A DNA stretch of 21,682 bases from a virus (taxonomy: Duplodnaviria; Heunggongvirae; Uroviricota; Caudoviricetes): the IMG/VR virus record IMGVR_UViG_3300028797_000009, positions 64,001 to 85,682 of that record; one strand, written 5' to 3'. Made by a program: the position numbers and the translations under genes. Shown here in pieces: positions 330 to 20,860 of the stretch (position 1 is the stretch's first letter; every line of letters starts with the position of its first letter). Under the pieces are notes generated by a model that worked only from the letters and a program-made list of their open reading frames with translations, searched no databases and had not been told where the DNA came from.

Positions 330-2477
330 GTGAAACAAAAGTTTAAAAACATAATCGAAGTCACTCGAAACTCCTACAAAGATGAAGGTGAAGGTGTAGT
401 TTCCTTCCCGAACGGTCTTTGTATTTCAGATAATCAGACTCAACGTAACGGAACTCGTTACGATATTGATTCTCTTGACATCAGCAAATATGCAGGCCAG
501 CTGACTGCAGACCACGAGGATAAATTATCCAACATCATTGGTCGTGTTGAGGGTGTCAAAAAAGAAAATGGACGAATTTCAGTTGAGAAGATTGTCTATG
601 CCGTTAAGCAAAATCCATACGCAAGATTAGCTTATGATTTGTTAGTCGGTGGATTTTCGAAGGCTTTTAGCACAGAAACTATTGGACCTGGTGCAGATAG
701 CACAGATGGAACTCTTAAAAATCATGAGTTGGTCGGTCTATCACAAGTCGTCTGCCCTAACAACTACTCCGCTATTATCAATTCTGTGCGTAATTCATTA
801 AAGACCGCTGAGGCTGATGGATTAAACGTTGAAGGAGTAGAAGAAGAAATCCTGAATAGTTTTAGTAAGGAAACAAATATGCAAGATGAAAACAAACCTG
901 TCGAAGCCGAGGAAAAGGTAGAAGAGGTTGTCGAAACTCCAGAGGTTGAAAAAACTGAACCAGTTGAAGAGCCAAAAGAAGAAGTAGAAGAGCCTGTCGC
1001 CGAAGCCGAGGAAGTCGAGGAAGTTGTAGAAGAAAAGACCGAAGAGCCGGAAGTAGAAGAGACTGAAAACAAAGTTGATGAAGTCGAAAAAGAAGAAAAT
1101 GAGATTTCCGATGAACAGGTCGCTGAACTCTTTGAAAAACTTGATGGTTTAATCGATATGGTAAAAGACTTCACTGGTGAGGATGAAGAAAAACCTGCCG
1201 ATGAAGAAGGTGTTGAGGAAATTGTAATTGATGACCTTAATTCCGCTGATGAAAAAGTAGAAAATAAAAAGGAAGAAACAATGGATAAAGAAGAAATCCA
1301 GAATGCAGTTGCAGAAGTTCTTAAAGGCTACTTCTCCAACGATGCAAAAGCTCCAGAATTCAAGAAGGATGAGGAAGGTGCTTCCTTCACCGATATGGAT
1401 TGGAAAGAGCGTTATAATAAGCAGGTAAATTCTGCTTATGAAGCCTTCCGCAACGGTTCTATTGCGGGTCGCCAAACTCTTAATGAGATTAATGAAGTTA
1501 ACTTCAACGCTCTCAAAGAGGCTGGCATTGTTAAGAATAGCATGACTATCGCCTCTATGGGCAACTTTGTTATTCCGCCAGAGATGTACAGAGAGATTGT
1601 TGGCAAACGTACTGACTACTCTGCAATCATCAATGCTACCGAATGGAAAGAAACCGATAGTCTTGAATTCGCTTGGTTGAAGCGTAAAGGCGACATCGAT
1701 ATGAAGAATGTCGCTATGTGTGATGATGGTAAGGATGGCAACTTGAAGCCAATTTCCGAGTATACCGCCGAGCCAGTCACCAGCAAACTTGAAGAAATGG
1801 CCGCTGTTACTGTCGTATGTAATGCTGCTACCCGTTTCTTCGCTGTTGACCTCTTGAGTGATGTTGCTGCTGGTTATCGTAATGATTATGACCGCAAACG
1901 TGCTCAGTTGGTTATTGCTCGTCTTGAGCAGGCTGTTGAAGAGAATGGTCAGAGTGTTGATTATGCTCCAATGACCGATACCGAAGCTATGGTTGATTGG
2001 TTGAAGGCTATTGCCGAAATCAGCGACACCACCGTTAATGGTACGCTTCTCTTTAACAACAAGACCTTCGCACAGCTCAAAGCTCATGCTCTTGAAGCAG
2101 GTGCTAATGGTCCACTTTCAAGCATCTTTATTGATGGTGAGATTCCACGCATCTTTGGTATGCCATATATTGTGCTTCCAAACGATTTGCTCCCAACCAT
2201 CGAGAGTGATGATGAAGTAGTCTTTGTTGTTGATGGCAAAGAAGTAGAAATCAAGCACGCTGTATTCTACGCTGACCTTGGTGAATTCACTGGTCGTACG
2301 AGTGGTGGTTTGCAGTATGATATTTCTGCTGATGCTTCTTACGAAGTTGATGGCACTGTACGTTCTGCCTACCAGCGCAACGAACTTGTCCTCCGTGGCT
2401 CGTTCTTCCGTGGTGGTGCTATCAAGGATACTAGCCGTGTTGCCGGTATTCTTGCGACCGAAGGTCCAGCATCCTAA
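330..2477 (+). CDS. Prohead protease-scaffold-major capsid protein fusion (HK97 fold)
   Basis: N-terminal HK97-type prohead protease motifs (ADH..IIGRV, GFSKAFS, ELVGLSQVVCPNNYSA), a Glu-rich linker, then a capsid domain (GNFVIPPE...DYDRKRAQ...FNNKTFAQLK...IFGMPY...AYQRNELVLRGSFFRGG). GTG start at 330 chosen over TTG 318 because GAGGT lies 5 nt upstream. Confidence 0.9.
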   Translation: MKQKFKNIIEVTRNSYKDEGEGVVSFPNGLCISDNQTQRNGTRYDIDSLDISKYAGQLTADHEDKLSNIIGRVEGVKKENGRISVEKIVYAVKQNPYARLAYDLLVGGFSKAFSTETIGPGADSTDGTLKNHELVGLSQVVCPNNYSAIINSVRNSLKTAEADGLNVEGVEEEILNSFSKETNMQDENKPVEAEEKVEEVVETPEVEKTEPVEEPKEEVEEPVAEAEEVEEVVEEKTEEPEVEETENKVDEVEKEENEISDEQVAELFEKLDGLIDMVKDFTGEDEEKPADEEGVEEIVIDDLNSADEKVENKKEETMDKEEIQNAVAEVLKGYFSNDAKAPEFKKDEEGASFTDMDWKERYNKQVNSAYEAFRNGSIAGRQTLNEINEVNFNALKEAGIVKNSMTIASMGNFVIPPEMYREIVGKRTDYSAIINATEWKETDSLEFAWLKRKGDIDMKNVAMCDDGKDGNLKPISEYTAEPVTSKLEEMAAVTVVCNAATRFFAVDLLSDVAAGYRNDYDRKRAQLVIARLEQAVEENGQSVDYAPMTDTEAMVDWLKAIAEISDTTVNGTLLFNNKTFAQLKAHALEAGANGPLSSIFIDGEIPRIFGMPYIVLPNDLLPTIESDDEVVFVVDGKEVEIKHAVFYADLGEFTGRTSGGLQYDISADASYEVDGTVRSAYQRNELVLRGSFFRGGAIKDTSRVAGILATEGPAS

Positions 2478-14287: not shown

Positions 14288-14725
14288 ATGGATTTGGCGG
14301 ATAGAATTGTCGCTTTAGAACAAGGGATAAAAGAGTTAAAAACATCTCAATCCGTTGGGAGTGGGTCAAATATTTTAATTCCAGTCAAAAATGTAAACTA
14401 TGTGTTCAATTATGATGGAGTCCAAGGTTTTAACAGGATTTATGTCTTTGAGGCAACAAGTAGGTTTTTCCCGATTGTTGCTCCAAAATTAACTGCGACT
14501 TTTAATGGTTCACCTACAAATGTTCCAGAGTTTACTTACGATGCTTATGGGATATATTATCCTAGTTACTATTCTCCGTCTAACCCAAAACAATCGATTT
14601 TTGAGCTAACTGTTAACCCAGACTATCCTTATACTCCTGGGACATACACTGTAAGTGGAGTAATTTATGCAAATTGTTATGGGACTCTAAGAGCATTTTT
14701 ATCTGATGGGAGTGAAGTAGAATAA
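14288..14725 (+). CDS. Small tail-associated protein, paralog 2 (LADRIVALEQGIKELKTSQ)
   Basis: TAATATG junction as at 3590/3592 and 17156/17158. Shared N-terminal motif. Confidence 0.6.
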   Translation: MDLADRIVALEQGIKELKTSQSVGSGSNILIPVKNVNYVFNYDGVQGFNRIYVFEATSRFFPIVAPKLTATFNGSPTNVPEFTYDAYGIYYPSYYSPSNPKQSIFELTVNPDYPYTPGTYTVSGVIYANCYGTLRAFLSDGSEVE

Positions 14726-17034: not shown

Positions 17035-17156
17035 ACTTTTTAGAAAAAATAAAATGTAAACTGCAAGGTGTGGGAGAGATAGAAGATATTACTCCTGCGA
17101 AAGAGTTAAAAGAGGTAAATCTTTCTGCTCAACCTATTCAGAATGAGGTGGACTAA
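17031..17156 (+). CDS. Small hypothetical protein, 41 aa (MNFLEKIKCKLQGVGEIEDITPAKELKEVNLSAQPIQNEVD); not in ORF track
   Basis: AAGGAG SD at 17021-17026, ATGA overlap with the upstream stop, TAATATG junction to the endolysin. Confidence 0.6.
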   Translation: MNFLEKIKCKLQGVGEIEDITPAKELKEVNLSAQPIQNEVD

Positions 17157-17157
17157 T

Positions 17158-17775
17158 ATGGCTTATGAACAAGTTTTGAAATTTGACCCTCAAAAGATGG
17201 GCACCCGTAAGGGATGGTGTCTGATGAATTGCCGTCTAGGATTTGGAATAAATAAAGGCACCTATCCATCAGCAAAAGCAGATATGGAAGCACAACAAAA
17301 AGAGGGTTGCTTCCACGCTGGTGAATTACCGCCAACAAATATAGCCGCTCCGATTTATTTTGATACTGCTAGCCAGTATGAGCACGTTATGGTTGCCGAC
17401 CACGGAACATATTATTCTGATGGTAAAAGGTTGACTAGTTTGGCTGGGTGGAAGTTAATTGGCTGGGGTGAAAAGTGTGATGGTGTTCGAGTAGTTAAAT
17501 ACACCGATGGCCCTGCTCCACAACCTGTACCTGGTTTCCTACCTGCTAAGGGTTATTGGGCTTATGGCGATAATGATGGTCGTATTGGTCAGGTAGCAAG
17601 TTTCATGCGTGCTAAATTCCCTGCTTATACAAATAAAAAAGCACTAGGTAATTACTTCGGTCCTTATCTGAAAGCCTCAATCACGGAATTCCAGCGTAGA
17701 ACTGGGCTAGAAAGGGACGGCAGAATCGGACCTAAGACTTACGCAATGCTAAAGAAATATGGTTTCAAAGGATAA
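17158..17775 (+). CDS. Endolysin: Cys-His (CHAP/NlpC-P60-like) peptidase plus PG_binding_1 domain
   Basis: GWCL...EHV catalytic-like pair, PAPQP linker, EFQRRTGLERDGRIGPKT peptidoglycan-binding motif. GAGGTG SD supports ATG 17158. Confidence 0.82.
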   Translation: MAYEQVLKFDPQKMGTRKGWCLMNCRLGFGINKGTYPSAKADMEAQQKEGCFHAGELPPTNIAAPIYFDTASQYEHVMVADHGTYYSDGKRLTSLAGWKLIGWGEKCDGVRVVKYTDGPAPQPVPGFLPAKGYWAYGDNDGRIGQVASFMRAKFPAYTNKKALGNYFGPYLKASITEFQRRTGLERDGRIGPKTYAMLKKYGFKG

Positions 17776-17778
17776 AAT

Positions 17779-18024
17779 ATGGAAGTTTTTGAATTAGACC
17801 CTGTGACCGCCGCTATCCTTCTTGGTATGGTGGCTGGTGTAGTCGAATTAGTAAAAAGAGCGTTTGATAAAGATTGGAAAGCCACAGCAACGATTATTGG
17901 TGCTGGTTGTGCTGGTGGTATTACGTCTTTATTGATGGGCGTTAATCCACTCATGGGGATTGTAGTAGGATTAGCTGCTTCGGGCTATATTACAATTGTT
18001 CAGAATATTGGTCCGAAGAAATAA
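17779..18024 (+). CDS. Holin
   Basis: 81 aa, 2-3 hydrophobic helices, basic C-terminus, adjacent to the endolysin. Confidence 0.78.
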   Translation: MEVFELDPVTAAILLGMVAGVVELVKRAFDKDWKATATIIGAGCAGGITSLLMGVNPLMGIVVGLAASGYITIVQNIGPKK

Positions 18025-18028
18025 TGAA

Positions 18029-18056
18029 AAATAACCCTCGGTAACGGGGGTTATTT
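18029..18056. terminator. Bidirectional intrinsic terminator between late and early modules
   Basis: AAATAACCCTCG-gtaa-CGGGGGTTATTT flanked by A and T tracts. Confidence 0.85.
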
Positions 18057-18063
18057 ATTGGAA

Positions 18064-18072
18064 TGGTATAAT
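18064..18072 (+). promoter_or_regulatory. Extended -10 promoter (TGgTATAAT) for candidate sRNA-1
   Basis: Exact TGnTATAAT just after the terminator, with no + strand ORF downstream. Confidence 0.65.
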
Positions 18073-18077
18073 TAACT

Positions 18078-18138
18078 AGTAGCGCTACTTATACCTCCTT
18101 TCTTTGAGAATAGTCCTCTTTGTAGGGCTATTCTTTTT
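18078..18138 (+). ncRNA. Candidate anti-SD small RNA 1 (~60 nt)
   Basis: Promoter 18064-18072, AGTAGCGCTACT palindrome 18078-18089, TACCTCCTTTCTTTG seed, hairpin AGAATAGTCCT/AGGGCTATTCT (18107-18134) plus T tract. Confidence 0.6.
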
Positions 18139-18376
18139 CGTTGTCAATCCAGTCTTTTGCTTCCTCTACGGTGTCGAATGGTTCGGCTAGAATACGGAAT
18201 TGTCCAGTATCGTCACCTGTTCCTTGTTCTGCAACTGCATAGATTGGTGATTCGTAGAAATCGTTTGTAGTAAGAACTTCGCTGATGGACAATGCGACCC
18301 CTTGTGTGTCGTATGTAGTGAAGTATGACACCTCGTTAGAATGTCTGACTAGAATGTATAATCCTTTATATTCCAT
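18128..18376 (-). CDS. Hypothetical protein (82 aa)
   Basis: GGAG upstream and TAATG coupling. Last gene of an early operon. Confidence 0.6.
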   Translation of the reverse strand: MEYKGLYILVRHSNEVSYFTTYDTQGVALSISEVLTTNDFYESPIYAVAEQGTGDDTGQFRILAEPFDTVEEAKDWIDNEKE

Positions 18377-19325: not shown

Positions 19326-19670
19326 TTATGCGTACCAACTTTCGTAAACTTGCTCACCGTGATATGGGGTTGCGATATGACCACCAATCTCGAAGCATTG
19401 GAAATCTTTGTAGTAGTCTTTGAATTTGACGATTTTGCCTTTGATTACATCGTTGATAAATACATCCCAACTTTTGAGTCTGGCTGTTGATGTGTCATAG
19501 CGAGAATCGCTACACATAAACCCTGTTGAATCTACTTGTCTGTCCATATCTACGGGTTCAACCACGGCTTGTGTTTTGCCTCGAAGGGCTTTTATTCTGT
19601 AAAAGTCCACATTTGTTTGGTCGTATCCCCAACTGATTGCGAAGATGTCGCCAATTTTTGCCTTTTTCAT
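19326..19670 (-). CDS. Hypothetical protein with GDIF..SWGYDQTNVDFY motif (114 aa)
   Basis: AAAGAAAGGAG SD before ATG 19670. First gene after the promoter at 19720-19748. Confidence 0.7.
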   Translation of the reverse strand: MKKAKIGDIFAISWGYDQTNVDFYRIKALRGKTQAVVEPVDMDRQVDSTGFMCSDSRYDTSTARLKSWDVFINDVIKGKIVKFKDYYKDFQCFEIGGHIATPYHGEQVYESWYA

Positions 19671-19719
19671 ATTGTTTCTCCTTTCTTTATCTGGGTGGGT
19701 TTTCTCCCCTCCCATTATT

Positions 19720-19748
19720 ATTATATATGAAAACTCTCAAAAAGTAAA
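19720..19748 (-). promoter_or_regulatory. Sigma70-type early promoter P1 (TTTACT-17-TATAAT)
   Basis: -35 at 19743-19748, -10 at 19720-19725, 17-nt spacer. Homologous to P2. Confidence 0.75.
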
Positions 19749-19780: not shown

Positions 19781-19815
19781 AAAAAACCACCCTCAATTTT
19801 GGTGAGGATGGTTTT
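19781..19815 (-). terminator. Intrinsic terminator (sRNA-2 / SprT operon)
   Basis: Minus strand AAAACCATCCTCA-ccaaaat-TGAGGGTGGTTTTTT. Confidence 0.8.
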
Positions 19816-19847
19816 CCGATAAAAGAAAGGGTAATCTTAATGATTAC
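19781..19847 (-). ncRNA. Candidate anti-SD small RNA 2 (~67 nt)
   Basis: Promoter at 19854-19882, 5' hairpin GTAATC-attaa-GATTAC starting at the predicted +1 (19847), CCTTTCTTTTAT seed, terminator 19783-19815. Confidence 0.62.
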
Positions 19848-19853
19848 AAGCCT

Positions 19854-20784: not shown

Positions 20785-20831
20785 ATATTTTCCTTTCTTT
20801 TATGGGAGGTATTATCCCTCCTCCCATTTTT

Positions 20832-20860
20832 ATTATATATGAAAAGTGTTAATAAGTCAA
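20832..20860 (-). promoter_or_regulatory. Sigma70-type early promoter P2 (TTGACT-17-TATAAT)
   Basis: -35 at 20855-20860 (within the last codons of the nuclease gene), -10 at 20832-20837. Confidence 0.8.

Follow-up and report, generated by a model that had tools for sequence, protein, structure and literature searches.

A candidate small RNA with an anti-Shine-Dalgarno seed between the late and early gene blocks of an uncultured phage

What is encoded in the 103-bp gap where the rightward late genes and the leftward early genes of an uncultured phage converge, and would its product act only on the message that it faces, or on ribosome binding sites (RBSs) elsewhere in the genome? The phage is represented by a record of 85,682 bp with direct terminal repeats, and the window, by which we mean the whole stretch of DNA analysed (21,682 nt), is its last 21.7 kb (64001-85682). 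Near, distant and protein BLAST searches against GenBank phages, with the DNA and with a 719-aa structural protein, gave zero matches to cultured relatives. On the plus strand the late block runs through an endolysin gene (17143-17775) to its end at a holin gene (17779-18024). From the other side comes a leftward block of small genes, which originates near the right end behind consensus -35/-10 promoters; the last gene of its early operon A encodes an 82-aa protein (18128-18376, minus strand). Just past the holin gene lies an intrinsic terminator (about 18030-18057), a hairpin flanked by an A-run on its left and a T-run on its right, which can therefore terminate on both strands. It ends the late (holin) operon on the plus strand and presumably early operon A on the minus strand. 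An 86% identical copy of this terminator precedes another promoter of the kind described below, at genome positions 14313-14347 (the module extends to 14358).

Seven nucleotides past this terminator hairpin there is an extended -10 promoter without a -35 element, TGGTATAAT (18064-18072, plus strand). Next come a perfect palindrome of 12 nt around the predicted +1 (18078-18089), which in RNA would form a 5' hairpin of 4 bp with a tetraloop, a CU-rich 17-nt tract with an anti-Shine-Dalgarno (anti-SD) core, which we call the seed (18090-18106), and an intrinsic terminator (hairpin 18106-18135, T5 to 18138). An earlier note on this DNA had listed the same four elements, and each lies where it had placed them; its 14-mer sits at 18092-18105, inside the CU-rich tract. 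It had also given the terminator hairpin 11 bp: the hairpin and its U tract are present, with 12 pairs, including two G.U, instead of 11. Promoter and terminator together predict a transcript of ~60 nt (18078-18138, plus strand), sRNA-1, within which the plus strand has no start codon. Folded from the predicted start it gives -15.3 kcal/mol (z = -2.56), with the seed single-stranded between the 4-bp and 12-bp hairpins and unpaired in minimum free energy folds. No Rfam family matches the region at E <= 1, and a covariance model of the unit (R1) finds one copy in its own genome (78 bits) and no paralogue.

Evidence that the arrangement is selected comes from relatives. A profile search of JGI/NCBI metagenome contigs provided three (L015, L016 and L017), so that together with the window four sequences of one lineage can be compared. 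All three carry an adjacent 82-aa-type protein with 60-70% identity, and in all three the sRNA-1 unit stands directly after that gene; R1 recovers one copy in each, at 80-91 bits. Their leftward neighbours differ, and the unit remains tied to the 82-aa gene. Invariant in all four sequences are AATGnTATAAT (in which n is G or C), the 17-nt tract, and the terminator arms with a run of five or six T, while the 14-19 nt between the -10 element and the seed vary, as does the hairpin loop. At adjacent third codon positions only 17 of 77 (22%) are invariant across the four, and synonymous third positions are 43-64% identical in pairwise comparison, which is near saturation. As the invariant blocks are split by variable spacers, this argues for selection rather than a recently exchanged module. 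Covariation is weak, with one double-sided change and a signal that does not exceed shuffles, because only four sequences from one lineage were compared. The earlier proposal of an independent promoter-hairpin-seed-terminator unit with a full anti-SD seed is thus backed by three relatives, and we regard sRNA-1 as very probably a selected plus-strand RNA unit.

Wider searches delimit this distribution. DNA patterns of the unit found no homologue in IMG/VR (near-identical records left out) or in genome contigs, and no relatives were found in IMG/VR and GTDB genomes through the 82-aa protein. The bare 17-mer has 26 matches in IMG/VR, all of them complements of ordinary strong RBSs or leader hairpins and none a homologue of the unit. 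Three jumbo-phage contigs of 255-262 kb (L021:1860-1950, plus strand; L030; L045) have the identical 17-mer directly past a TATAAT; there its complement is an RBS 25 nt downstream, forming a leader hairpin that would sequester the SD.

A second set of relatives (L003-L014) was collected through the holin. The junction is not kept in these contigs, and R1 gives no significant match in them. One of them, L013, is a distant phage with a 73% identical holin and has an anti-SD element of its own (2320-2425, minus strand). There TGGTATAAT shares bases with the stop codon of a 155-aa gene that converges on it, and behind it come a hairpin, a CU-rich tract, an ACCUCC loop and the bidirectional terminator; relative to the holin the element is oriented the opposite way. 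In L008 (3225-3360) and L013 (2208-2340, plus strand) the final codons of the holin gene read GATGGTATAATCTAR and are followed by ~130 nt of non-coding sequence before the terminator, and this stretch may be another small transcript.

Which strand is functional is the next question, as the complement of the seed is a very long Shine-Dalgarno sequence. The earlier note had named one outcome that would speak against an sRNA, namely that the tract is the SD of a decayed minus-strand gene still intact in relatives. No such open reading frame (ORF) exists in the three relatives, and in all four sequences the minus strand has neither a start codon nor an ORF behind the SD-like tract; a decayed minus-strand gene is therefore rejected. 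The terminator helix points to the plus strand: across the four sequences 100% of its cells are paired on the plus strand and 80% on the minus strand. G.U pairs arose independently in the window and in L017 and become A.C mismatches on the minus strand, and the hairpin energies on the plus and minus strands are -12.0 and -9.0 kcal/mol in the window and -11.5 and -7.3 kcal/mol in L017. A T-tract past the hairpin is found on the plus strand and not on the minus strand. The stop codon of the 82-aa gene lies inside the hairpin in the window and L015, and 9-30 nt upstream of it in L016 and L017; as the T-tract is kept although the coding sequence ends upstream in the latter two, it is not conserved as coding sequence. 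Finally, the n of TGnTATAAT swaps between G and C while no partner base changes with it, as would be expected of a promoter but not of a stem.

The minus strand could still be the functional one without encoding anything, if an ORF-less SD in the operon A 3'UTR were to bind 30S subunits as a stabiliser or decoy of the STAB-SD kind, or to act as a sponge for a second small RNA, described below as sRNA-2. Its sequence would make an ideal RBS, and the complement of the identical 17-mer is a true RBS in other phages. The minus-strand version of the region folds well (z = -5.8) and could pair over 9 nt with the core of sRNA-2. However, all four sequences lack a start codon or ORF behind the SD-like tract, and the G.U pairs, the T-tract and TGnTATAAT are meaningful on the plus strand only. 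STAB-SD, known from Bacillus thuringiensis cryIIIA, is moreover a 5'-to-3' stabiliser, which at the extreme 3' end of a message would protect nothing. We consider a functional minus strand improbable.

The same sequence might also contain no independent sRNA at all. The hairpin and T-tract would then be a back-up terminator of the rightward operon, and the CU tract an anti-SD within its 3'UTR, similar to that of icaR in Staphylococcus aureus, where a C/U-rich 3'UTR motif pairs with the SD of its own mRNA, which prevents initiation and yields a substrate for RNase III (PMC3868564). In L015 rightward transcripts probably continue to the second hairpin, since the first terminator has no T-tract in that direction, and the CU tract may there double as a 3'UTR element; in L013 an anti-SD tract does lie within a 3'UTR. 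What this account leaves aside is AATGnTATAAT, which keeps both its sequence and its position, 14-19 nt ahead of the seed, between flanks that vary. The first terminator of the window is good in both directions, and the unit stays with the 82-aa gene while leftward neighbours change among the relatives. The icaR motif works inside a single mRNA, without a separate promoter, whereas that of sRNA-1 stands behind a conserved one. We therefore think it distinctly unlikely that the unit is merely the end of the rightward operon.

At the predicted +1 each relative has a perfect palindrome without a loop, and its sequence differs from one to the next (L015:3313-3320, L016:1040-1051, L017:3313-3324). 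Such perfection exceeds what an RNA hairpin needs; the element could be a dyad operator or an RNA dimerisation site. The 5' hairpin of L015 would not be part of the RNA predicted there. The palindrome of the window (18078-18089) has no second copy in the genome, which rules it out as a multi-site operator.

When would sRNA-1 be made? Its promoter belongs to a recurrent type: TGnTATAAT without a -35 element occurs 25 times in the genome against an expectation of 7.5 +/- 2.5 (3.3-fold), and 22 of the 25 copies are on the plus strand, many of them directly past terminator T-tracts and just before genes. Within the window they lie at 247, 3765, 4915, 10179, 13669, 15125 and 18064. Middle and late genes are probably served by this motif as a second class of promoter, which suggests that sRNA-1 is co-expressed with them, the timing itself being pure inference. 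Three further copies (30988, 31097 and 32043) lie outside the window beside a tRNA-like sequence, in a region (genome 30500-32100) that may be a cluster of small RNAs and tRNAs.

Genes behind the other type of promoter have a characteristic RBS. A repeated cassette, made up of a near-consensus -35/-10 promoter and, 6-45 nt past it, an A/G-rich RBS of 10 nt, is present in at least 11 copies, two on the minus strand of the window (19678-19748 and 20791-20860) and others at genome positions 895, 3123, 18834, 19270, 20630, 23753, 34887, 39232 and 47615. The 8-mer AAGAAAGG, which lies within AAAGAAAGGA, serves as the RBS of 9 of the 14 genes placed right behind near-consensus -35/-10 promoters and of 12 of the 135 others (Fisher p=5e-6), and it is never the RBS behind a TGnTATAAT promoter. 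The cassette of promoter, leader and RBS is retained in the relatives; a change in L017 still permits a G.U pair.

The 10-nt A/G-rich part of the seed's complement is the exact RBS of about 13 genes. Eleven bases of the seed are identical to the 3' tail of 16S rRNA of the Firmicute type, from which the tail of the host may differ. What is presumably a copy of the 16S 3' end within the seed includes CCUCCUUUCU. Duplex energies were calculated for 149 crudely defined start regions, with a generic 16S tail as the comparator. Pairing with the seed at -12 kcal/mol or better was found for 38% of start regions and 5% of random windows. The longest match is one of 12 nt (genome 23752-23763), for the gene at genome position 23771, and another, at genome 47606-47616, covers 11 nt. 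The best trans match in the window, 11 nt at -16.2 kcal/mol, is the RBS of the first gene of operon A (19678-19688, minus strand; start codon at 19670), which lies 32 nt behind a -35/-10 promoter scoring 10/12. The seed would thus pair well with the beginning of the very operon whose 3' end sRNA-1 overlaps. This match, and those of 8 nt each at the RBSs of the KGG gene and of the 74-aa gene, had been reported before and are correct.

How specific such pairing would be is a separate matter. Seed energies follow those of the generic 16S tail (r = 0.80), so the seed is a general anti-SD whose specific targets cannot be named, and any strong SD, including those of some middle genes, would be expected to be bound. 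Genes in the minus-strand end clusters nevertheless pair better than structural and lysis genes, 56% of the former and 17% of the latter reaching -12 kcal/mol or better (p = 0.001), and this better fit to early than to late genes suggests that control is directed at the early set, in place of the broad decoy activity that the earlier note had considered possible. Only the 10-nt A/G part is used by the leader RBSs, which do not account for the invariant CCUCC and UAUA parts of the seed.

These invariant parts are relevant to a further possibility, in which the seed, instead of pairing with mRNA, mimics the 16S 3' tail and so draws off a tail-recognising protein or nuclease. The 11-nt identity to a Firmicute-type tail, with a hairpin in front, would suit such a mimic, as would an invariance that reaches beyond what the leader RBSs need. 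No partner for it emerged, however, and the statistics of the RBS cassette are more simply explained by pairing, so that we judge a protein decoy highly improbable.

The window contains a sister candidate, sRNA-2 (19781-19850, minus strand), whose architecture is like that of sRNA-1 and which shares a core with it, CCUUUCUUU. A TTGACA-17-TACAAT promoter is separated by some 65 nt from a terminator, and the RNA would have a 5' hairpin and, left unpaired, the tract containing CCUUUCUUU; the unit is kept in two of the relatives (L015:1110-1215 and L017:1670-1800, both on the plus strand).

The position of sRNA-1 opens a second route of action, in cis. As the earlier note had recognised, its whole length is antisense to the 3' end of the minus-strand operon, and in the window it overlaps the stop codon at 18128: the TAG of the 82-aa gene (18128-18130, minus strand) falls within the terminator hairpin, and the 3' end of this gene and its 3'UTR are fully complementary to sRNA-1. 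Since the hairpin lacks a T-tract on the minus strand, operon A should read through it to the terminator at 18057-18030. The resulting 3'UTR and sRNA-1 would form a duplex of ~60 bp with perfect complementarity, and its outcome could be RNase III-type decay of the operon A message or titration of sRNA-1.

This could be all that sRNA-1 does, in the manner of OOP of phage lambda, with decay of the operon A message as its only role and the resemblance to an anti-SD incidental. The layout fits: like OOP, a phage RNA of ~60-77 nt that converges on the 3' end of an early message, sRNA-1 has a promoter and a terminator to itself, runs towards the last gene of operon A and overlaps its whole 3' end. 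OOP covers 52 bases at the 3' end of cII, and its effect depends on cleavage of the duplex by RNase III (PMC5869508; PMC12197685). In contrast to sRNA-1, OOP lacks an anti-SD seed, and trans targets are not known for it; the two share no sequence similarity, and in sRNA-1 it is the sequence of the unpaired tract that is conserved, and not the overlap with the coding region. Complementarity in cis survives any mutation, so it alone cannot keep 17 bases invariant beside saturated synonymous sites, which argues for a role in trans. A role only in cis would also leave unexplained the match to the leader-RBS cassette and an unlinked second sRNA with a common core. We regard it as unlikely.

The convergent layout had also reminded the earlier note of type I toxin-antitoxin loci, with sRNA-1 as the antitoxin RNA and the 82-aa protein or another operon A product as the toxin. 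In txpA/RatA and bsrG/SR4 a convergent antitoxin RNA does overlap the 3' end of a small toxin gene. The 82-aa protein does not look like such a toxin. It is acidic, with five predicted strands, one amphipathic C-terminal helix and no hydrophobic stretch, and its AlphaFold model is beta-rich and soluble (pLDDT 61, too weak for a fold search). It has 42 homologues with 61-99% identity, and searches of PHROGs and Pfam gave no match. The overlap with its coding sequence, stop codon included, is present in the window and L015 and lost in L016 and L017, and the antisense overlap is otherwise with the 3'UTR. The resemblance thus does not hold up: the type I reading is rejected on the properties of the 82-aa protein, and we leave it only a minute probability.

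The account that we favour combines the two routes. Host RNA polymerase would start at about 18078-18080 from the extended -10 without a -35 element (18064-18072) and stop at the terminator (18106-18138). The seed of the resulting RNA would pair with the RBSs of promoter-proximal early genes in competition with the 16S 3' tail, and translation initiation of the early genes would be lowered as a group. That sRNA-1 is a real RNA of ~60 nt, which masks the ribosome sites of early genes and also forms a duplex with the operon A 3'UTR, we hold, from sequence comparison, to be an evenly balanced proposition; that anti-SD masking is its main role has about the same even chance.

Several known RNAs share parts of this design. 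The CiaRH-dependent csRNAs of Streptococcus are short, most of them with two stem-loops, and have an unpaired anti-SD with which they are proposed to block translation initiation regions (PMC3091779). Like them, sRNA-1 has its anti-SD unpaired between two stem-loops, and the csRNAs likewise occur as several sibling copies with a common core. However, the CiaR box TTTAAG-N5-TTTAAG, which stands 10 nt before the csRNA -10, is absent here, where 18030-18063 is the terminator hairpin. The csRNAs also carry an anti-start-codon CAU, which sRNA-1 lacks in 18087-18108, and the anti-SD of sRNA-1 equals the 16S tail in length. sRNA-1 furthermore has no Rfam match, belongs to a lytic-type phage and is cis-antisense to the end of an operon. 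Membership in the csRNA family fails on the missing CiaR box and the missing Rfam match.

Among phage RNAs, sar of P22 and c4 of P1/P7 pair around an RBS and block translation (PMC12197685). They target one gene (ant) through gene-specific sequence, whereas the seed of sRNA-1 is generic and fits an RBS cassette repeated in front of a dozen genes. We found no direct counterpart among phage-encoded anti-SD sRNAs in a search of the literature. To our knowledge, the RBS-masking phage RNAs described so far, sar and c4, act on one gene each and come from temperate phages, and the small RNAs of virulent phages are barely charted. A protein with a related task is RegB of phage T4, an endoribonuclease which cuts GGAG and so disables the SDs of early messages. 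Like RegB, sRNA-1 would be a phage device against the SDs of early messages, with the difference that masking by RNA would replace the nuclease.

Taken further, sRNA-1 and sRNA-2 could together be an RNA-only timer for early-gene shut-off, a reading of which, taken as a whole, we are doubtful. In such a timer, sRNA-1, expressed from the promoter class that it shares with structural genes and mimicking the 16S 3' tail over its full length, would out-compete the 30S subunit at the AAAGAAAGGA(GG) cassette of a dozen units. The 60-bp duplex would destroy the operon A message, whose 3'UTR would early on act as a sponge that delays the switch.

If this is true, the phage would run its early-to-late translation switch by RNA alone, through a conserved sRNA with a generic anti-SD seed as long as the 16S tail and matched to a repeated cassette, together with a sister sRNA. 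It would represent an RNA counterpart of T4 RegB in a phage lineage without cultured relatives. With its 60 nt, a 17-nt seed and defined leaders, it would also be a compact case for the competition between an anti-SD RNA and the ribosome.
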